The notes under the pieces are model-generated. The model worked only from the letters and a program-made list of their open reading frames with translations. It had not been told where the DNA came from and did no database searches. From positions 126,234,001-126,298,000 of the forward strand of contig NC_086097.1 of the NCBI RefSeq assembly GCF_963921235.1: a DNA stretch of 64,000 nt. Reading direction: 5' to 3'. A program made the position numbers and the translations under genes. Within the stretch, counting starts at the first letter, position 1. Each line of letters begins with the position of its first letter. This DNA is from Mobula hypostoma (lineage: Eukaryota). Shown one piece after another: positions 12,645 through 40,270 of the stretch.

Positions 12645-12737
12645 GTTGATATACGAAGATTCTGATTGTGGCCTATATAATGTGACATTGTTCAGGAAGG
12701 CAGTTGATGACTTTCGACTGAAGGCCAGGGAGAATAA
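12645..12737 (+). CDS. ATP6V1C1: V-type proton ATPase subunit C1, internal coding exon (93 bp)
   Basis: caag|G TTG ATA...AAT AA|gtaag; encodes (K)[30 protein letters not shown](K). Confidence 0.95.
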
Positions 12738-12824: not shown

Positions 12825-12918
12825 ATTTATCGTGCGGGATTTCCAGTATAATGAGGAGGAACTGAAAGCAGATAAAGAAGAGATGACTCGTCTTTCAACT
12901 GACAAGAAAAAACAGTTT
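12825..12918 (+). CDS. ATP6V1C1: V-type proton ATPase subunit C1, internal coding exon (94 bp)
   Basis: ttccag|A TTT ATC...CAG TTT|gtatgt; encodes [31 protein letters not shown]. Confidence 0.97.
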
Positions 12919-19975: not shown

Positions 19976-21111
19976 ACAGAATTTTGTTTTTGAAGGGAAC
20001 CTAGAAACAAGGCAAAAGTAGCCATTATGTAAACATTATGCTTCTATGTTAGGATGCAATGTTTGTGATTGGGTATTTTACTATTGATCAAAAAATGATC
20101 CTGCTATTAGTTGACATCTTACAAGGTGTATCAGTTCCACAGCTAGAAGTTCAACTACATTGAAATCTGAATAAATTTAATCAGATTGTGGGAGTTATTT
20201 TTTTGGATGAGGGTGAGATGAGCAAAATTACTTGGCACCATACTACATCTATGTGATTGTTTTGCAATTTCAAATGTTTAGATAAACACTTGCTAATTAT
20301 CTTTTATAGCTATGCCCTCTGGAAGGCTAAAAGTAGGAAATGAATGAGAATATAAAATTGACTTTGCTACATCTAATTGTGATACTAGGATAAGTTAAAA
20401 TAAGGGGTTGTTTCATATTTAGCAATAATACTGTACATACTGTCTTGTGCATCTTAATTGAAAATTATCTGAAGTGTTTTTTAAACAGTTAAAACTGAGT
20501 CTGTTCTGCCATTCCATCATGGTTGATTTATTATCCCTCTAAACCCCATAGTCTGCCTTCTCTGTTTAACCTTTGATGCCCTTACTAATCAAGAACCAGT
20601 CAACCTCTGCTTTAAGTATTTATTTATTTAATTTACTGATGCACTACAGAGTGGCCCTTCTGGCCCCTCAATCCATGCTGCCCCAACAACCTAATCACAG
20701 GACAATTTACAATGACCAATTACCTACCCACCATGTCCTTAGACTGTGGGAGAAACTGGAGGACCTGGAAAAAACCCACACATTTCACAGGGACTCATTG
20801 CTGAGCAGCGTCGGAATTGAACTCTGAACTCTGGAATTCTCAAGCTGTGATGGTGTCACGCTAACCACTACATTACTGTGACGCCCAGTGAAATAGCCTC
20901 CCCAGCCTTCTATGGCAATGAATTCCACAGATGCACCCCCCCCAAAGAAATTCCTCCTCATCTCTGTTCTAGAGGGACGTCTTTGTATATTGAGACACTC
21001 CCGCTATAGGAAGCATCCCTTCATCTTCAATGCCTAGATAGAATGCATAAACTGTATAAAATGTATTGCAATGAACTATTTCCTCAAATGTGTTGTACTG
21101 TTTATTTGTAG

Positions 21112-21209
21112 GGTCCTTTGGTGCGATGGCTGAAAGTTAACTTCAGTGAGGCTTTTATTGCATGGATTCACGTGAAAGCCTTACGAGTGTTTGTAGAGTC
21201 TGTTCTAAG
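21112..21209 (+). CDS. ATP6V1C1: V-type proton ATPase subunit C1, internal coding exon (98 bp)
   Basis: ttgtag|GGT CCT TTG...CTA AG|gtactg; encodes [32 protein letters not shown](R). Confidence 0.97.
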
Positions 21210-21335
21210 GTACTGATTACTAATTTGAAACTTCACAGTGCAAATGCTATTATACAATAAGTTTTTAATGTTATCAGTTTAATTCTTAGTTGTAAATCAA
21301 AGTATAATGTTTGTGCTTGGATATTTCATATTCAG

Positions 21336-21610
21336 GGTACTGTAGTGGTTAGCACAGTGCTATTACAATTCAGGGCGTTGTAGTTCAGAGTTCAATTCCG
21401 ATGCCATCTGTAAGGAGTTTGTACTTCCTCCCCATGGCTGCATGGGTTTCCAGGTTTACTTCCACATTCCAAAGTCGTACTGATTATTAGGTTAACTGGT
21501 CATTGTAAATTGTTCTGGGTTTTGGTTAGGGTTAAATAGGTGGTTTGCTGGACAATGTGGCTTGCTGAGCCGGAAGGGCCTGTCTGCGCTGTATCTCTAA
21601 ATAAATAAAT
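21336..21610 (+). mobile_element. tRNA-derived SINE with a CR1-like tail
   Basis: B-box-like GAGTTCAATTCC; tail GAAGGGCCTGT..GCTGTATCTCTAAATAAATAAA. Confidence 0.65.
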
Positions 21611-21891
21611 ATACATTTGCTACTGATCAGAAACCACTTCAGCACTCGTACTTGACAGGTCAATTAAGGTAAATCAATTAAGGTTTTCTGATTTTGTATT
21701 TTTCTTCTAGGGTCTAAATCATTGTCAGAATTTCTAACATTTGTGGTCAACATAAACTTGGGAGAGGTAGCACTCAGAACAATTTACCAGCAGTTCACTT
21801 GTACTGAAATGCAAAAAAGTTTAATGAAATTGTTAAAAGGAAAGGCAAATCCTGTTGCAGAGCAATTTGGAGATGACATTATTTCATCTTC

Positions 21892-22143
21892 TTTCCTTAC
21901 GTACATAAGCCCATCACCCCTATTGATGCATTGGCTGCCAACAGCATCTTGCCAATGTCCTCAGTCTTGGGCTAGTTTTTCAAATTGTTCCATCTTTGTG
22001 GTGTCCTTCGTCTCCCACGGATGAGATCTTTGGTGCTGCTGTTGGTGTTTCTGTAGCTCTGGGTTTTTGGAGATGGGGTTGCTAGTCCCATGCCCAATCC
22101 TCCTCCTTTTCTAGCTGGGCTTGGGACCATCCATGGCAGAGTT
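21892..22143 (-). mobile_element. Short non-autonomous RTE-type retroelement headed by a twister-like motif
   Basis: Flanked by TTATT(T/C)CATCTTC at 21879-21891 and 22142-22154. The 5' part resembles an RTE 5' UTR; the 3' part resembles an RTE ORF end (..AQD*GHWQDAVGSQC..). Confidence 0.65.
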
Positions 22144-22144
22144 A
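22091..22144 (-). ncRNA. Twister ribozyme-like motif (P1 type; 5' P1 strand absent, slightly decayed)
   Basis: Minus strand reads U^AA-CUCU-GC-CAUGGA-UGG-UCCCAAGC-CCA-GCUAGAAAA-GGAG-GA-GGA-UUGGGCA. Conserved UAA, UCCCAAGC loop and GA; P2 = CUCU/GGAG; P4 = UGG/CCA. Confidence 0.72.
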
Positions 22145-23199
22145 TTCCATCTTCCAGTATTTGCATATTCAGAGCTGTTTTGGATGCTTAGCTTTTGTAC
22201 TTCTGTTTCTTTCACTTTAATTTTGAGTTGGATTATATTTGCTGAATGACATCCTAAACTGAATATTCTTAGAAAATGATTTTAATTAGTAGAGTAATGT
22301 CAATGCAATTAAATGTGAGTTGAAGGAGAAGTTGTACTTTTTTTTCAAATGCTTGTAAATTGTTGAGTGCTATCCTACCAAGTTTGTTGACCACAAATGT
22401 TAGAAATTCTGTCAATGATTTAGACCCTAGAAAAAAATTATAAAATGTGAAAAGCCCGCACTACACTAATCCTTGTGAGATCGCCTTGTCTTCTGATTAT
22501 CTCTACCCTGTGCTTTCAGTTAGCTACCTATTCTGCTTCCTGTCCCTTAACTTTATTTTTCTGTCCCTAACTTTATTTTGAACATGAAGGTTTTTATGCA
22601 GTACCATAAGGCCTTTGTCTTCAAATGATCAACTATTCCATCTTCTTATATTCAGCTTATTTCCTTCCCATTAAATGTTTAGGGGTTTAGTGAGTTGTGA
22701 GACCATAAGACCATAGAAGCAGAATTAGGCTATTTGGCCCATTGAGTCCGCTCCACCATTCCACCATGGATAATTTATTATCCCTCTCAACACCATTCTC
22801 CTGTCTTCTCCCTATAATCTTTGACACCCTTACTAATCAAAAACCTATCAAACTCCACTTTAAATATTACCATGTCTATGGCAATGAATTCCATAGATTC
22901 ATCACCCTCTCACTAAAGAAATTCTTCCTCATCTCTGTAAGAAACATCCTTGTGAACTAAAATGTGCTGTTACTTGAAATAATCAAAAAGTGCCAGATCA
23001 CTACAGATAATTTTACAAAAGGGAATTTAATCTGGTATTCAAAGGATAAACATCTTTTCAGTTTCCAGTGTCAAATAATTGATCCATTGAGATTTTTTTA
23101 TCACTGTACTTTGCTATCAGCTTGTGGTTAAATCTAAAATCTTTAAATAGATCATGCCAGCTATCCATATTCCAGAGAATTGTAGTGTCTAAATTCTGG

Positions 23200-23800
23200 A
23201 GTCTGGCGTGGTAGGCTGCGTACTGTAACAGGACCCCCCTCTCCTACAGCCGAATCCTGATGGCTCTGGCTGCTCGGAGTGACTTTGACAGTAATCATGG
23301 ATCAGTGCTGGGGGTAATTTGATAGACCTCAGAGTCTCCTTAATAGGTTGACTAGAGTACAATGTCGAAACAGGGTTCAGACCAGGGTCCTAATCTGACT
23401 CCAGAGACTTGACCAAATCAGAGTCCAAATCTTCTTCTGTATCCTCAGATGACGGCAACAGGGCACTATGAATGGTCTTTGTCCTCCTGGGACTAGGCTC
23501 TGAGAATCTGAGTTTAGGAGCCTTGCCCTTTCACGGGACCTGTGACTGAGTCCCTCAGGCTTGGCTGCTAGGGCTCCGGAATTCTTGAGCACATCTTTGG
23601 TGGGTTATTTTTCTCGCTTGTCCCTTTCTCTGCAGTTCCAACACACCTCCGACTAGGCAGGGTCAGAACTCTCACAGTCCTGTTGAAATCTTCTCACTAT
23701 GGCTGGCCACAGCTGACGAGAGACTCCGATATCCTGCTGGGTCTGTGTTGGCTAAATCATACTGTGACAAGAGGCCTAGGTGAGGATGGTAAGGATCCAA
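23200..23800. mobile_element. Possible highly decayed Gypsy/chromovirus-like fragments
   Basis: Minus strand has PALIHDYCQSHSEQPEPSG followed by a purine tract GGAGAGGGGGG and TGTTACA; plus strand has a protease-like DILLGLCWLNH at ~23728-23760. Confidence 0.35.
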
Positions 23801-26715
23801 GTGCTGGACTATCTGAGACTAGAATTGAAACACGATTTTGAGACTGAGATGAGAAATTGAGTTCTTGACTGGATACTAGATAAAAACCTGACAAGACGAG
23901 ACGAAAATCCAAATGAGACAGAAATCCTTAAGTCAACTGCAATCTGAACCAAAGTTGAGCTGACGGTTGAACACTGAACCTGAATTTCGGTGCTCTTTAA
24001 ATATCCAAATCTTGACATCAAAACTTGGCTGCCAATTAGTGGAGTGGGCCAGAATCTATAAAGGGACCACGCCAGCTATCTGTATGACAATCATCGCATC
24101 TAAACCCCAGAGGCTGGCACGGTCGGGTACATTCTGTAAGATGACAAGGTACAAGATGAGGATTGATTTTGTGGAAAATATTTTTGCTTAAACTATTCCT
24201 TCCCCCATCCACTATCTTTGGGGGCGGGTGGGATCTATATGCGGATAAAGTATGGCTTAACACTTAAAAATATAAACTTAGCAGAAGACCTAAGACTGTT
24301 AATGTTCTTGCATGTTAGGTGTCCTGACAATGTTTCTGTGCAGATCTTTGTGTTGAACCTCTAAGTAGCTTATTATTTTTGCAGATTGCTAAATTTGCTA
24401 ATGATTTAAAGATGGGTAGTTTCATCGCTAATCAACTGGACTCTGAAAACTCACACTTGGTCATCAATCACACTTTTACTTGTGCACAAGGAGAGCAGCA
24501 TGGCTTCTGTCACTATAATTTTCTCCAGTCTGAACAGAGAAATGCCATTTTTATACATAATTGACTAGCAGTTGCCAATATTGACCATTTGGTGAACTTG
24601 TGTATGTTCAAACTCCCTTTTTTTGTATAAATCACCAATCACACTACAATAATACAAGTATTAATAACCAATAGAATTTCCATGCTAAAGGTCAATAATA
24701 CTTCAGAATTAGTAAAATAACTGATCAGTAGTAAGTGTTACCCTAGAATTCTTTGTTTGCATCCTTGTCTTTTGTATTCCAAAATGGCTCTGGTCCCTGC
24801 TGAGCAAAAGGAAGCTGTGCTTTTCAAAGATCTTTCTTAAAGATCCTTTCTTGTCTGGGCTGGCTGCATACGACCTGTAAGCTATCCTTGCCTGGACATT
24901 TTCAATCCTTACCTTGCTGCAACTTGCACAGTAAACTGTGAGAGAGGCATACGGTGGCTACAAATAGGAGCAAGGATCTGGCAAAAGGAGTATAATGTGG
25001 ACAAAATATGAAAAAATAAAATGAAACATTATTTAAATAGTGACACTACAGAGCTCTGAGGTCTAGAAAGGTCTTGATGTCCTCATGCATGATTCACTAA
25101 AGACATATGCAGATAGAGCAAGTAATCAGGAAAGCTAACAAAACTTTTGGTTATGTTGAAGGGAGTTGATTACAAATATTGGGAACTTGTGCTTCAGTTA
25201 TTTAGTGTATTGACACAACCACATTCAAAATACTGTGCACAGCAGTAGTCTTTAATGTTCATGGAAGGTTGCTAGTGTATTGGGAACGGTTCAGAGAAGG
25301 CTTAACTTTACAAATTTCTGGAATGAGTGAATTATTTTAGAGGAAAGTTGGAAAGGCTCAACTTGTGTCCATTGGAGCTTAGAAGCTGAGAGCAGATTTG
25401 ACTGAAGCAAGGTGCTGCAGGTTCTTGATGAGGCAAGTGTGGAGATATTTTCTCTTCTGAACTGGGGAGTCACGGTTATTTTTTAAATTGTCCATTTAAA
25501 ATGGGTAAGGTGAAATTATTTTTCTTAGTGGGGCATGTGTCTTTGGATTTCTCTTCCCCAAAAGGTGGTCAATAGATGTTGCCTGGCCTGCTGAGTTCCT
25601 CTAGCAATTTGTGTGTATTACTTTGATTTCCGGCATCTGCAGCTTTTCTCTTGTTTGTTTTCAAAGCAGAATCTTTTGGTATTTCTAAAGCAGAGGTTGA
25701 TGGTATTTGATAAGCAGGTTGGGGGGGGGGCAGTCTCTAGGTACCATAGGTAAAGTGGAATGCAGAATTGAGGTTATGGTACGAATACATTACTGAATGG
25801 TAGAATAGTGTTGAATGACTATCTCGCTGCCGACTGTTCCTAATCCTTGGATTTATTCACCTGTTACTTCAGGCGGGAAATTCAACATGCCTAATGCCAA
25901 ACAGGCTAACTGCCTTTCCTGTTTTATTCTAAAGTTATTTCTATGTATTGGTATTTTTAAAGGTAAATGAATATGAAAACAGTCACTTCAAATAGAGCAG
26001 TTTTGTGTGACAAGAATAACATTTGAAAAGTAGTTAATGGTACACAAATGCTGCCCCAAGCAAAGACTTGCACACTGGGTAATGTGAAGCTAGTTGAAAA
26101 AGAGGAATTCTAAATAATAAATTAATACAGTTAAGTATGGTAAGAAAATTTTGTATAGTTGGTTTTATTTCAAAATCAGCATAATGTACTGAAATTTTAT
26201 AATCATGTTTAAAAGATTGTGAAAAATAAAATTATCTTTTAAGCAATATTATAAATAACAGAATTTGGGATGTGAGATAGCAATGTGGCAATATATTTGT
26301 ATCATAAAACATCTCAGAAAATGTGAACAGTGTATTCACGATAAGATGTTCTTATGGCCACAAGTAATACTTGACAGTTTTGATAAACCATTCTTGATGC
26401 ACAGCCTTTTCAGTTGAAAGAAGCACAACTATTTACTGATAGAATTTAGGTATCTGGAAAAGCCTAAATAAGAGAAATTAAATAAACCCAAGCAGAAAAG
26501 TTATAAAATATCAGACTTGATATCTTAAACTTTATTGCAAGGAGGTAAGAGCTTGAGGTGGGCTGAGAGTACTGAATGGAGGTAGTGGATTGAAAGGAAA
26601 GTAGAAGCATCATATAATGACACAAGACTAAAAGGTATATATATGAACCAAATATTGAACTTAGTCATGTGATTTATATTATATTTATGTGGCACAAGTC
26701 ACAATGTTGTTAACA

Positions 26716-27030
26716 TGGTGGCACGGTATCGTAGCAGTTAGTACAATGCCCTACAGCACACTAGTTGTAAGATTGGAGCTTCAATTCCCACCATTGTATG
26801 TAGGAATTTGGTATGTTCTCCCCATGATTGTGTGAGTTTCCTTCGGATGCTTCTGTTTCCTCCCATGTTCCAAAGACTTACAAGGTTAGGGTTTGTAAGT
26901 TGTGGGTATGCTATGTTTGCACCTGAAGCATGGCGACACTGTGGACTACTCCCAGCATATCACTAACACAAATGATGCATGTTTCCATGTTTCGATTTAA
27001 GGTACATGTGATAAATAACCTTATCTTTAA
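26716..27030 (+). mobile_element. tRNA-derived SINE
   Basis: Same family as 16925-17230. Confidence 0.65.
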
Positions 27031-27289
27031 AGTTATGAATGATAAATCATACTTTGTAATGCATTCTTTTTGATTCCTATGATGTACAATTTGTAATAGT
27101 AGATAGATTTCTATACTGTACTTTGTAACATGGGAACACAAGTTAATTGTGTAACAGGCATCTTTTCCATTAAGCTTTCTTTTCATCTTAAAATTCTTTT
27201 AAAGATAATTATATCTGAAACTTTATATTAAAAAAGAATCCATTGGTTGAAGTTGCTAGATGAACACTTGTTCTAAAGCATTTCTGTCT

Positions 27290-27690
27290 CCTTGTTGTAG
27301 GGTTTGAAGGCTTGCGTGCCTCAATGACCCGGAAAGCAATGTTGGCTGGAGTCGGGGCTTTATGCTTTGGCTCTTGGTAGGGTCACTCATGCCAAACGCG
27401 TCGAAGGGTTGAAGCCAGACTTAAGAATGGTCCTCTGGGTTTGGGGGTTCAGCTCGGGGTTAACAGCCCTGACTGGTAAAACAAAACTGTTAAAGGAAAC
27501 AGCAATATGAAGTATCCTTCTATATCTTAAGTGCAATGGTATTTCTGAGTTTCCACCCGGAACCTGCAAGACTGTCAGTAGTGAAAACTGAGCTACTGAC
27601 AAGACAAAGGAAGCCCTGAACACCACCAGAAATGAAGGACCTTCATTGTTGCCCTAAACACCAGTGGTGTAATGGGGCAGTAGCTAGTGA
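27290..27690 (+). mobile_element. Short RTE (Expander/Rex3-like)-derived element
   Basis: 5' UTR motif GCTTTATGC..GGTAGGGTCAC(C/T)CATGCCAAAC; a second copy lies on the - strand at ~43590-43945. Confidence 0.55.
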
Positions 27691-27765
27691 TTTCTGTGTA
27701 TGGAACAATATTATGCATGTAAAAGTACAGGATGTATGACTAACATCTTTGTTTTATCTTTCCAG

Positions 27766-27892
27766 ATATGGTTTGCCAGTTAACTTCCAGGCCATGCTTT
27801 TACAACCCAACAAAAAAATGATGAAGAAACTTCGAGAAGTTCTCAATGATTTGTACAAACACCTAGACAGCAGTGCAGCCGCCATCATTGAT
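27766..27892 (+). CDS. ATP6V1C1: V-type proton ATPase subunit C1, internal coding exon (127 bp)
   Basis: Branch point TGACTAAC at 27737-27744; ttccag|A TAT GGT...ATT GAT|gtaggt; encodes [42 protein letters not shown]. Confidence 0.97.
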
Positions 27893-28407
27893 GTAGGTAC
27901 CTGAATGGCAACACTTGTTTCAGTAATTGTTAATCTATTAGGAGACATCGTTATTTTAAAAATAACTGACTGCAGGCCTCTTAGATAAAATGTTGATTGT
28001 AATTTTATGGAACAGATGGACCATTTATTGCACCATCACTTAATAACACGCAGACTAGTCGCAATTTTTCCCAAAAGTGTACTTTATATATAAAGCTCAA
28101 GACTCTTTATTCCATTCCATAGATGCAACCTGACCACCCAAGTTCAGATGGGACCTGGAATTATCTTCATTTACTATACCAGGCGTACTAGGTCATTAGT
28201 TATTCATTCTTAGATATTCGTTGTAGTTTTTATCCACAGTCCACAGGCTTTTCTCATAGTTGCATTAGTGTCCTTCAACACATAATTCTATAGTTTGGAT
28301 TACAGAATTTATACTTGATGGAAGTTACTGCTTCTGAAATGTGAAGGGCATTCTCTACCTGTGGGAGAGCCTTTCATTGCAAAATCCTTAGATTAGAATG
28401 AGAATCA

Positions 28408-34677: not shown

Positions 34678-35934
34678 TAAGATTTTATAAAAACAAAATA
34701 TTAAAGGTGCTGGAAGTGTGAAATGGAAACTAAAATTTTGGAAGCACTTTGTATATAAGAGTGTACTTGCAGGGAGTGAAAGAATTAATATGTCATGTTT
34801 ATCATACTTATGAAATTGCATCTTCAGCAACCTGGGCTCAATGCTCACTTCATACTATCTGTATGGTGTTTACATGTTCTTTCGATGACTGTGGGTTTTC
34901 CCTGCATGCTCTGACTTCCTGTCTTATCCAAAAGGTATGCAGTAGGTTAATTGTCAAAGTTCAAAGTAAATTTATTATCTAATTCCATGTATGTAAAAAG
35001 TGCGGAATAGGCCCTTCGAACCATACTGCCCAGTAATCCACCGTTTTTATTGTAGACTAATTACGGGACAATTTACAATGGCCAATTAACCAACCAACTG
35101 ATACGCTTTGGACTGTGGGAGGAAACTGAAGTACCTGGAGGAAACCTATGCAGTCACAGAGAGAACGTACAAACTCAAACAAAATAAACAAGCAACTATA
35201 CTTCCCTGAGATTCAATTTCTTGCAGGCATTCACAGTAGAATAAAGGAGTAAAATAGAATCAATGAAAAATGACAAAAACTGACAAGCAACTAATGTGCA
35301 AATGCAAAAGGAAGCGTCTAATAAGTAATATTGTGAACTTGAGTTGTAAAGTTCTTGAAAGTCAATCATTATTGATCAGTTCAGTGTTGTGGTGAGTGAA
35401 GTTATCCAATCTGGTTCAGGAGCCTGGTGGTTGTAGGGTAATAACTGTTCCTGAACCTGGTAATGTGGCACCTAAGACTCCTGAACCACCTCCCTGATGG
35501 CATCAGTAATGGCCTTAGACGATGGAGGTTCTTGATGATGGCTGTTGGAAATCCAGGGAAAAGTGCACAAAATGCTGAAGGAACTCAGCTGGTTAGGCAT
35601 CATTTATTGAGAGGAGTAAACAGTTGATATTTCAGGCGAAGACACTTCATCAGGACCGGAAAAGGAGGAGGAAGAGTCCAGAATAAAGTAGGGATGGTGT
35701 TTTTTTTTTGTGTGGCAGTGCTCTATGTAAATATACTGGATGGTAGGGAAGGCTTTTCCTTTAATGGACTGGAGTGTATCCACCTCGTACTGTAGACAAG
35801 TTGTCTGCTGACCTGTATATTACCTGAGTATGTAGCTGAGTGGTGTAATGTAGGGGAAGTTAATAGAACTATGGGAAGTATAAGGTGGCATTAGTGTAAA
35901 TGGTTGTTGATAGTCACTGTAATAGTAACTTTGA

Positions 35935-38900
35935 CAAGCTGGCCACCTGTACAGAGCCTGCCCGAGGTGTGGGGGCACCTACGCACAGGCGACCAGGGGA
36001 GGTGCTGGCCCTGAAAGGGCCCAGGCAGTTTCGGACGTCCCTGCCAGCACTGCAGAAGAGGCACCCGACAGGACGGATGATGAGACCAGGGAGGAAGGGG
36101 CAAGCACCCCGAGACCTGCCACCCCACTGCAGACCCTCCAGGACCAAGCAAACGACGAGCAGGAGTCCATGGAGGAGGGGAGAGCTGAGGTGGAAACTGA
36201 ATGGAAGGTCGTGAAACAGAAAAAGACCCAAAAGGCGGCGGCCAAGCGACAGAAGGCGGAGCAACGCAAGAAAAGGGCAGGGAACCACACAGCCTCTGGT
36301 ACCCTGTCCTCTTCAGAGGAGGAAGGAGTTGGGGGAGGCCAGCAGCCTCAGCGGAAGAAGCGGCTGGCAGAACAGGTGGAGAGGAGGAGGAAAGTCTGCT
36401 GGCCACCCCCCAAGTACAGGAGGCGGAGAGCAGCAGACACACAGAGCTCCGGGAATCCGGGAGCAGAGCCACGGCTGGCACCCAGCAGTCGGAAGGGGAA
36501 GCAGCCCAGGAAGCCAACAACCCCCCGGGCCCAGAACCAGAACGGCCACACACGGAGGAGTACTACCAGCAGTACCTGAGCCCACAGGAGGTGGAAAACT
36601 TCACAAAGGCGGTGGGAATGAAGGCTCAGGATGGCAAGGGTGAGGACGGAGAGCAGCCAAAATAAAAGACCTACAATGATGGCAGACCTTAAATTGGCGT
36701 GCTTGAATGTGCGAAGTCTGAAGAGTACTGGGCGATGCGTCAGCACGCTCCAGTACCTGGACACTGTAAAGACCGACGTGACCTTCCTCCAGGAGTGCGG
36801 ACTACCACATCTCCGTAACTACCGGAGGTGGTCACGGTGGTGGAAAAAAGGTTTGTCTGTGTGGTCGGGGGGCAACGATTGTCGCGCTTCCGGCCTGGGG
36901 ATTCTGCTACGGGGAGGCAACTTCTCAATCACCCAAGTTAGAGGTGGTTGCGGGGCGCCTCCTGGTAGCAGACGTCAAATACCGGGGCACTCCGCTCCGG
37001 CTGATCAACGTGTACGCCTCCCCCGTTCGGAGCGAGCGGCTGGTCGTCTTCGAGCAGCTCCCACAGCTGCTGGTGACGTCCCAGCCGGTCGTTCTGGCCG
37101 GAGACTTCAACTGCACCATTGATGCGGCTGGAGGACAGTACCTCCAGACTCCTGAGGGAAACGGTGAAGACAGCCAAGCTGCGCGACGCCTTTGGCACCC
37201 CCACAGGTGGAGCACAGCCGCAAGCCACCTGGACACGATCGGACGGCTCAGCCCGCTCCCGGATCGACTTCCTCTTCCTGTCAGAGTCCCTCAACGGTCA
37301 GGTCCACCGACGTCACGCCGGTGTTCTTCTCTGACCACTGCCTTCTGAGAGCCACCTGTCGCTTACGGGAGGACCAGAAGGCAGGCAGGGGGACGTGGAA
37401 GCTGAATGTTAAGTTGCTGACCCCAGAGAACATCGAGGAACTAGAGAAGGAGTACACAGGTTGGAGAACCTTGAAAGCCTTCTTTGATTCCCCGGTTCAC
37501 TGGTGGGAAGCCACCAAGGAGAACATTAAGAGGTTCTTCATCCGCAAGGGTATCCAGAAGGCAAGGCAGGAGCAGAGGGAACTGCGTAAACTCCAGACAG
37601 AGTTGCAGCAACTTCTCCTTCTGCAGTCGAAGGGGGTGGATGTCAGGGAGGAATTGCGGGAGGTGAAGGGCCGGCAAGCCCATAACCTCGCCGCCGAATC
37701 CTCCAAGATCATCTTCCGATCAAGGGTCCAAACCGTGGAGCAGGACGAGACGTGCTCACGCTTCTTCTTCCAAAAGGTGCACAGGGGGAGCCCTGTGATC
37801 CACAACCTTAAGGAAGAAGACGGCTCAGTCGCGTCCTCGCAGACCGACATACTGAGGATCTGCAAGTCCTTCTATGCCGGTCTGTACGACGAAAAGGCCA
37901 CAGAATCCACAGCCTCCCGCAACTTCCTGTCGTCTATCACGCAGGTCTTAGACGACGGCAAGCGGGAGAGTCTGGATCAGCCACTGACCCTGGACGAGCT
38001 GACAGGCTCCATCCGCTCCTTTGGGTCGGGTAAGACTCCCGGAAGCGACGGCTTACCGGCTGAGTTGTACTCGGCTCTGTGGATGGGCTCAGACCTGCTG
38101 GAAGTGTACAACGCTATACTTCTGGCCGGCAGTATGTCTGAGTCCATGAGGAAGGGCATCATCACCCTCATCTACAAGCAGAAGGGGGAAAGGGAGGACA
38201 TTAGAAATTGGAGACCCATCTCTCTCCTGAATGTGGACTACAAGATCCTGTCCAAGGCTATCGCCAACAGGGTCAAGTCTGCTCTGGGACAGGTGATCCA
38301 CCCGGACCAAACCTGTGCTGTACCAGGCAGGAAGATCTCAGACAGCCTCGCGCTGCTGAGGGACACCATCGCCTACGTGCCCGACAGGGGGGTGGACGCC
38401 TGCCTGGTCAGCTTGGACCAGGAGAAAGCCTTCGACAGGATATCGCACACGTACATGGCGGACGTGCTCTCCAAAATGGGATTTGGGGAGGGAATCCGGA
38501 ATTGGATCAGACTGCTCTACACAGACATCCGTAGTGCAGTCCAGGTTAACGGGTGGGAAACAGACAGCTTCCCCATCAGGTCTGGAGTCAGGCAGGGCTG
38601 TCCCCTCTCCCCTGTCTTGTTTGTCTGCTGCAAAGAACCCTTTGCGGAAGCCATCAGGAGGGATGAGGGCATAAGAGGGGTGACGCTGCCAGGCAGTGGA
38701 GGGACCCAAGTGAAAACCTCCCTGTACATGGACGACGTCACCGTCTTCTGCTCTGATCCGAGGTCAGTTCGCAGGTTGATTGGCACCTGCGAACAGTTCG
38801 AGCTAGCGTTGGGGGCCAGGGTCAACCGCACGAAGAGCGAAGCCATGCTCTTCGGCAACTGGCCCGACCGATCCAGCGTCCCCTTCACCATCAGGTCTGA

Positions 38901-40270
38901 CCACGTGAAGGTGTTAGGGATCTGGTTCGGAGGGGCGGAGGCGTGCAACAAGAACTGACAGGAGCGGACTGCCAAGGTGAAACAGAAACTGGGACTGTGG
39001 GGAGGGCGCTCCCTGTCGATAACGGGCAAGAATCTGGTCATCAGGTGTGAGGTGCTCTCAGGGCTGCTGTACTTGGCGCAGGTCTGGCCCATCCCCCGCT
39101 CCTACAGCTCGGAAATCACCCGGGCTGTCTTCAGATTCGTCTGGGGATCCAAGATAGAGCGGGTGAGACGGACCGCCATGCACAAGTCCCTGGACAACAG
39201 GGGCAAGAACGTCCCCAATGTCGCCCTCACCCTGATGGCCAGCTTCGTATGTGGCTGCATCAGGTTGTGTGTAGAGCCCAGGTGTGTGGGCACCAAGTAC
39301 CACTATGTGCCCAGGTTCTACTTGTCGCCCTGGCTACGAAGGATGGGTCTGGCCCCACTCCCGCGCAACGCCCCAGTCAGCTGGTCGTTGCCGGCATACC
39401 TGTCCTACGTAGCAAAGTTCTTCCAGGAGAACGCCTTTGACCACAGGGCCATCAGGCAGTGGTCGGCACGTAATGTCCTGCAGGCACTGCAGGAGAAGGA
39501 CGTGATGGACACAGTGGGGTGGTTCCCTGAGCAGACTGTCCAGTTCATCTGGCAAAATGCCTCATCGCCAGATCTAACCAACAGGCACCAAGACCTCGCC
39601 TGGCTGGCGGTGAGAGGGGCCCTCCCAGTCAGAGCCCTCCTGTACGCCCGGAACGTCGTCTCCGCACCCCACTGCCCACGGGAGGACTGCAGTGAGGAGG
39701 AGTCTGTGACCCACCTCTTTGCACACTGCCAGTTCGCAAAGAGGGTGTGGAGGAGGATGGACGGGCTAGTGTCACGTTTCATCCCCAGCAGCTGCGTAAC
39801 AGAGGACTTTCTGATCTACGGGCTGTTCCCGGGGACACACACGGAGACCAACGTCCGGTGCTGCTGGCAGATCATCAACTCGGTGAAAGACGCTCTTTGG
39901 TCGGCCCGAAACTTGATGATCTGCCAGCACATGGAGATGTCCGTGGGAGAATGCTGCCGACTGGCACATTCTCGGCTGCAGGAGTACGTGCTGAGGGACG
40001 CACTGAAACTTGGTGCAGCCACCGCAAGGGCCCGGTGGGGAAGGACCACAGTATAGGTTTCTCCACCCGTGGGAGTGGGAGGGGTCGGAGGGCGGGGAGT
40101 ATACCCCTCAACAATGATATGGTAAGCTGAACTACTGGAGTGCCACGTGGGTGGCTATAAATACAGATATGTACTGTGTATAATAGAAACGTATGTAAAG
40201 GATGAAAAGTTATTGAATGGTTTATTGTATATATTTATTTTTGAATAAAGTATATTTTGAAATAAAAAAA
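35935..40270 (+). mobile_element. Tx1-clade (L1-like) LINE, 5'-truncated within ORF1
   Basis: Begins in an ORF1 zinc-knuckle end (AGHLYRACPR); complete ORF2 span; 3' UTR with AATAAA and an oligo(A) tail; GC- and CpG-rich relative to its flanks. Confidence 0.92.
36676..40056 (+). pseudogene. Tx1 ORF2 (APE endonuclease, RT, C-terminal CCHC), disrupted
   Basis: Motifs LNVRSL, FLQE, AGDFN, RIDF, FSDH, KTPGSDG, NWRPISLLNVDYKIL, GVRQGCPLSP, YMDD and CPREDC..ESVTHLFAHC. Frameshifts near 36941, 37130 and 37295; in-frame TGA at 38956-38958. Confidence 0.9.

Follow-up and report, generated by a model that had tools for sequence, protein, structure and literature searches.

The window analysed here, a 64,000-nt stretch of the Mobula hypostoma genome (NC_086097.1, 126,234,001 to 126,298,000), holds a short insert that begins with a twister-like sequence at the very bond that a twister ribozyme would cut. 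This raises the question of what the insert is and what fixed its 5′ end. We consider it very likely that the insert is a decayed, short, non-autonomous retrotransposon, composed of the first ~140 and the last ~113 bases of a LINE, and that its 5′ end was set by the predicted twister head.

The insert and its host intron

The insert, the element sequence of the window, is 252 bp long (22143-21892, - strand). The following features were recognized:

22142..22154 (-): 5′ copy of the target-site duplication, 13 bp, its last two letters overlapping A1-A2 (direct repeat)
22143..22144 (-): predicted scissile bond U(-1)|A1, the 5′ boundary of the family (Rfam match, 90-copy alignment)
22098..22143 (-): predicted twister-P1 core without P3 and P5 (Rfam match, feature scoring), with A1-A2; P2 at 22141-22138/22106-22103; T2 at 22137-22136; P4 at 22129-22127/22118-22116; loop L4 at 22126-22119; general-base G at 22102; T1 strand at 22100-22098 with one C-A mismatch
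22093..22097 (-): 3′ strand of P1, UUGGG, without a built-in partner and predicted to be able to pair with L4 (Rfam alignment, folding)
22073..22091 (-): hairpin of the LINE 5′ UTR, common to two sibling LINE families with other heads
22006..22143 (-): 5′ half, the first ~139 nt of the partner LINE 5′ UTR, with 115 of 139 letters identical to the full-length copy L203
21906..22005 (-): 3′ half, the last ~113 nt of the partner LINE (ORF end), with a private 12-nt deletion; junction class J1
21892..21905 (-): decayed short-repeat tail; the tails of the family are (TAAG)n or (AAG)n
21879..21891 (-): 3′ copy of the target-site duplication (direct repeat)
21208..27763 (+): host intron of a V-ATPase subunit C gene, with the element antisense inside (GT..AG joints, PF03223)

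The twister-like sequence that the initial annotation had quoted from the - strand (22144-22091) was confirmed. P2 (CUCU/GGAG), the GC of T2, P4, the loop UCCCAAGC and the G-A were all in place, as was the T1 strand with one G>A change, which lies at 22098. The near-perfect target-site duplication of 13 bp was also found, 12 of its 13 letters being identical between 21879-21891 and 22142-22154. Read on the - strand, it ends in the two A's with which the element begins, giving 11 bp of target and a 2-bp overlap. Two statements had to be refined. The 5′ end is indeed near the U^A bond, but where it had been put within ~2 nt, the family boundary coincides with the scissile bond (22144|22143). The 5′ strand of P1, described as missing, is mostly but not wholly so: the Rfam alignment allows the UU of the 3′ strand to pair with two A's of the host. 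The 12-nt loop motif had no second copy in the window beyond chance.

Four exons of the host gene were recognized between 12646 and 27893 on the + strand. These exons (12646-12737, 12825-12918, 21112-21207 and 27764-27893) are separated by GT-AG introns of 87, 8193 and 6556 bases, and PF03223 was found on all three exons scanned. The splice joints were seen in transcript contigs from four runs in two studies, such contigs showing neither RNA ends nor strand. Because the window copy is antisense to the V-ATPase subunit C gene, it cannot be cut from the host-gene transcript. It is an old insertion in an intron and shows no sign of a function.

Within the intron, the insert is flanked by a ~110-bp inverted duplication (21684-21795 and 22347-22453, 87% alike), whose pairing could give the pre-mRNA a long hairpin, the element lying in the loop. 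A MITE was rejected as the source of this repeat, which was single-copy in the genome search (two matches, both local). Further along the window, at 35891-40056 (+), we found a long, nearly intact, GC-rich and probably young LINE, with two ORF regions, endonuclease and reverse transcriptase (RT), presumably Tx1/L1-like.

Twister features and the 5′ boundary of the family

The Rfam check proposed in the initial annotation returned a match to the twister-P1 model (RF03160) at 22094-22148 (-), over the whole model (1-68), with 35.4 bits and an E-value of 2.7e-5 for 3 kb (cmscan; the second of six matches had an E-value of 0.038), although the gathering score of 67.2 was not reached. Seven of 20 chosen family loci gave twister-P1 matches, with 28.8-39.8 bits, and the other 13 gave none, nor did two of three LINE loci. 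All Rfam-scored copies stayed far below the cut-off of 67.2, the best having 39.8 bits.

We scored 19 twister features, covering P2, P4, the pseudoknots T1 and T2, A1, A2, the general-base G and the letters of L4. The window copy kept 18 of them, having lost one T1 pair (C-A mismatch). Among 89 copies, six kept all 19 and 14 had lost one. Allowing for CpG decay, the majority letters retain A1, A2, the general-base G and all P2, T2, P4 and T1 pairs. A complete P1 stem was lacking, its 5′ strand being host flank, with two pairs in the window copy. In the survey of PMC11662667, mean cleavage fell from 0.76 to 0.65 on a single T1 pseudoknot defect, C-A being one of the better tolerated defects, so the window copy might still cleave in vitro.

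Against the twister, covariation beyond independence, which had been expected as support, was absent from the 12 twister pairs in 89 copies (all Fisher p > 0.36), as expected for neutrally decaying copies of few masters. Single-strand folding, a method blind to pseudoknots, did not favour the twister fold (z -1.6 to +1.5). Divergence at non-CpG positions was 9.7% in the core and 12.4% downstream; selection on the core was rejected as an explanation, because the copies had been chosen by head alignment.

The family consists of a few thousand ~250-bp elements. From the 3,650 candidates of a genome search (3.48 Gb), we scored 40 and retrieved 30. One 24-mer from the 3′ half has 202 exact occurrences in the genome and was intact in 3 of 55 copies chosen otherwise, which corresponds to a rough figure of 3,700 copies. 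Since 52 copies were 79-92% identical to the 252-nt consensus (window copy 87%) and about half of the CpG positions had decayed, the family is old. It is probably extinct.

To avoid choosing copies by their heads, two samples were drawn by the 3′ half. From the first 30 of the 202 exact 24-mer loci, 23 aligned from consensus nt 1-3 (two of them sharing one duplicated flank), two started at nt 4-10, two at nt 11-30 and two further in, and one was headless. In the blastn sample (30 of 40 loci), 20 aligned from nt 1-3, the window copy included. The proposed pile-up of 5′ ends at the scissile bond was seen in both samples. Over five samples with 141 distinct loci, the head began at nt 1-3 in 90. 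Of these 90 copies, 85 had A at +1 and 84 had A at +2, with background composition from -2 outwards. T at -1 was found in 40 of 90 (background 0.30, p 0.002; outside the first sample 26 of 61, p 0.02), an excess beyond what a clean cut alone explains; untemplated additions or a joining preference could give it. Clear target duplications were present in 16 of 86 two-ended copies, versus 1 of 400 shuffled flank pairs, and the other 70 had none at that score. All 16 ended between -3 and +3 of A1, within a search range of -10 to +6. The pile-up, the A's at +1 and +2 and the ends of the target duplications together place the boundary on the bond cut by twisters (PMC8501958).

A Pol III SINE was rejected, as there was neither a head match to tRNA, 5S or 7SL nor any internal promoter box. 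The reported lack of Pol III boxes was borne out: A and B boxes were absent at 0 or 1 mismatch from the window copy and the family consensus. ARAGORN found no tRNA in 21000-23000.

Several LINEs have internal promoters that give fixed 5′ ends. The head of this family could likewise be such a promoter, with A1 as the transcription start and the twister likeness a relic that no longer cuts, and the absent covariation would agree with this. However, the boundary falls on the exact bond that twisters cut, A1, A2, the general-base G and the paired positions persist in the majority letters once CpG decay is allowed for, Pol III boxes are absent, and homologous heads cleave at the same bond in Perere-3 (PMC8501958). 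We therefore regard a promoter origin of the 5′ end as highly improbable, and favour a twister cut.

The partner LINE and the deletion junctions

The last ~100 nt of the short element translate to a peptide. A 12-row profile of it matched 199 proteins, many at the C-terminus, among them P0147, a reverse transcriptase protein with RVT_1 and DUF6451; Pfam gave no informative match on 12 tail peptides. Three sibling LINE families, reached by a P0147 search with 20 loci extended, were rejected as partners, their common part with the element being the 5′ UTR hairpin only. No Rfam ribozyme match was found in the 14 sibling loci scanned.

Searching with a pattern specific to the sequence immediately before the tail, we obtained 53 matches, fetched 30 of them and extended the 12 with coding relics. 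Three of these 12 loci had the head, ORF relics and the tail. L203 (3,070 bp) was 90% identical to the short consensus in its head and 88% in its tail, with endonuclease and RT relics between, and L201 (2,790 bp) had the same build. L205 (2,374 bp) carried a twister-P1 match at its head (30.9 bits), the one match among the three LINE loci. By tblastn, the relics aligned to the endonuclease and RT parts of the intact sibling ORF L122, which has the domains Exo_endo_phos, RVT_1 and DUF6451. An intact partner ORF was found in none of the 12 extended loci, all partner copies being broken. For L201, the endonuclease piece alone had no Pfam match and the RT pieces had weak ones only. The partner has RTE-type features, namely a single ORF with APE endonuclease and RT, a length of ~3 kb and a short-repeat tail; from these, rather than from a tree, we take it to belong to the RTE clade.

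Since head and tail are common to L203, L201 and L205, the short element is, judging from its sequence, an internal-deletion derivative, in which the first ~140 nt of the LINE are joined to its last ~113 nt. It has the build of a bipartite non-autonomous LINE, with both LINE ends joined by an internal deletion and no ORF, and the target duplications and repeat tail of a unit that amplifies as such. The head and tail held in common with broken ~3.1-kb endonuclease/RT LINE copies support the earlier view of a non-autonomous, twister-headed element mobilised by an RTE-type LINE. This view had missed that the element consists simply of both ends of a LINE found in this genome.

Junctions were mapped in 110 copies, and 85 fell into six classes (25, 24, 16, 7, 7 and 6 copies), whose limits were drawn after the data had been seen; three of the classes are only a few letters apart, and two of the samples were motif-chosen, which enriches two classes. 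The window copy belongs to the class in which nt ~142 meets the last ~113 nt. Even with these limits, many dispersed loci have identical junctions in flanks of their own, which shows amplification as a unit, and we infer that several separate LINE deletions each became masters. Alternatively, the short copies could be one-off template-jump products or later deletions of the full-length LINE, and not a self-propagating family. The 25 junctions outside the six classes would suit this, as would several long copies with internal deletions of their own. But the recurrence of the same junctions at many dispersed loci, the short copies' own target duplications, and the finding that none of the 30 loci picked by the 3′ 24-mer extends into the LINE ORF make this extremely improbable.

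For a self-propagating family headed by a twister, the proposed cycle would be as follows. The element would have no promoter of its own and would be transcribed within host read-through RNA, and the twister would cut at N(-1)|A1 regardless of the upstream letters. The LINE protein would bind the 3′ end common to both elements, and target-primed reverse transcription would proceed to the cut end. As the RNA would be copied to the cut end, daughters would start at A1, without the 5′ strand of P1.

Several observations concern the LINEs themselves. L122 (857-3913, -; G000:C36, about 131.60 Mb), from a sibling family, has an uninterrupted endonuclease/RT frame of 1,018 aa; its relatives, with an identity to it of only ~89%, are broken. 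Family A (L122, L123, L132, L133) and family B (L126, L127, L137, L140) have the post-twister hairpin in common (22073..22091 in the window), with letters changing between families on both stem sides (8-row alignment, by eye), and have different heads upstream. LINE heads look interchangeable before the common hairpin. The heads of both families had no Rfam match. In family A the head has a small hairpin that is conserved, and this head might be a ribozyme, either undescribed or HDV-like. The sibling copy L129 (oriented 916-1611) has its 5′ ~700 bp inverted, as in twin priming. In L201 (G000:C36:137443300-137448000, ~1620-2010), a ~64-nt unit, comprising most of the twister core, is tandemly repeated in the head. 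At G000:C75:7623050-7623196, three 5′ UTR motif matches, 42 and 84 bases apart, suggest a tandem array derived from part of the element.

P1, related systems and meaning

The initial annotation held that a new copy is re-activated only if the host flank restores P1. This found no support. The flanks of 90 copies offered 2.49 of 5 P1 pairs, against 2.54 of 5 at other flank positions. P1-less twisters are reported to cleave at almost wild-type rate (PMC5408937), and the natural twisters tested in PMC11662667 had P1 imperfections without loss of cleavage and tolerated all four bases at -1. The idea is also not new, as a target duplication that supplies the 5′ strand of P1 and tunes activity is the published model for Perere-3 (PMC8501958, Figure 5D). 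In its "only if" form the claim is neither new nor likely; a competing hairpin leaves room for a weaker form.

In three of four minimum-energy folds, L4 pairs with the UUGGG strand (pseudoknots being outside the method). The ribozyme could accordingly be crippled in each new copy and work only with a P1 rebuilt by the flank, UUGGG otherwise blocking L4, which would leave few masters. Few masters are also suggested by the few junction classes, and Liu et al. propose that letters of the target duplication tune P1 and activity, their variants differing in rate (PMC8501958). Yet cleavage is seen in Schistosoma variants that have a mismatched P1 together with this same L4 and 3′ strand (PMC8501958). 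The reported dispensability of P1 (PMC5408937, PMC11662667) also argues against such gating, as does the lack of excess flank pairing, though daughters need not mirror the flanks of their masters. We judge gating by P1 to be unlikely, and keep to a twister that cuts regardless of its flank.

A further conjecture, in our view decidedly unlikely, is that the 3′ strand of P1 blocks the catalytic loop unless the flank captures it, so that the insertion site would select the masters, and that cutting copies in sense orientation within introns would break the pre-mRNA and leave a strand bias. If true, thousands of dated insertions, their natural flanks and six independent deletion masters would make the family a test bed for the gating of retrotransposon fitness by a ribozyme in a vertebrate. 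It would also map the minimal RTE cis parts, about 140 nt of head plus about 70 nt of tail.

Perere-3 of Schistosoma mansoni has a T-variant twister at its 5′ end, and its cleavage has been shown (PMC8501958). Our family resembles it in the layout of the head, AA CUCC GC ... GUCCCAAGC CCGG ... GGAG GAGGG UUGG (PMC8501958, Table 1), and the majority letters equal those of the Schistosoma twisters of that table in P2, T2, L4, P2′, L1′ and the UUGG strand. Also alike are the 5′ end at the cut site, with an adjoining target duplication that provides the 5′ side of P1, the GTAA-type tail and a partner ORF with endonuclease and RT; T-variants without a built-in P1 are described there as well (PMC8501958). 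Unlike Perere-3, the abundant form here is a ~250-bp ORF-less derivative in a vertebrate, its head is without the P3 stem, its copies are old and its cleavage is predicted only. The supplement of PMC8501958 lists vertebrate T-variants (catfish); it had no match to five head motifs of the family, or to shark, Callorhinchus, Rhincodon or Latimeria. According to PMC7761336, truncated active twisters are conserved at RTE 5′ ends and likely process RNA from upstream transcripts, a single sentence citing work in preparation, in a passage without species, sequences or non-autonomous forms.

Bipartite non-autonomous RTE LINEs are described in PMC5786205 (RTE-N1_Lch, RTE-N2_Lch, RTESINE1/2, WALLSI3 and Bov-A). 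Like our family, the RTE-N type (260-290 bp) is ORF-less, with 5′ and 3′ RTE ends joined by an internal deletion. A 5′ self-cleaving ribozyme is suggested there as the reason why bipartite RTEs keep the very 5′ end of the LINE; the sections covered name no twister, and the likeness is one of description rather than of Repbase sequences. The R2 SIDEs of Drosophila (PMC3414825) and the RIME and NARTc elements of trypanosomes (named in PMC5786205) are comparable non-autonomous elements that combine a ribozyme at their 5′ end with the parent LINE's 3′ end, the R2 SIDEs being copied by the LINE protein. They differ in having an HDV-like ribozyme and belonging to other LINE clades, and R2 SIDEs are site-specific in rDNA (PMC3414825), whereas the twister-headed family is dispersed.

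In the literature covered, which was largely open-access and did not include Repbase or Dfam, we found no twister-headed non-autonomous RTE in a vertebrate or cartilaginous fish. This family may be among the twisters tested in PMC11662667. RTEs with twister heads, bipartite derivatives of RTEs and SIDEs headed by a ribozyme are each known; their combination was not found described in that literature.

The twister-headed mini element is a further example of a published arrangement and not a new principle, tidy rather than surprising. The one worked-out biological role of twisters is the 5′ processing of an RTE-type retrotransposon in Schistosoma, and the family would extend this role to a vertebrate genome and to ORF-less parasites of a LINE. 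It offers a concrete example in favour of the published suggestion that a ribozyme is why bipartite RTE derivatives retain the LINE 5′ end (PMC5786205), and its recurring deletion junctions bracket the cis requirements of such elements.
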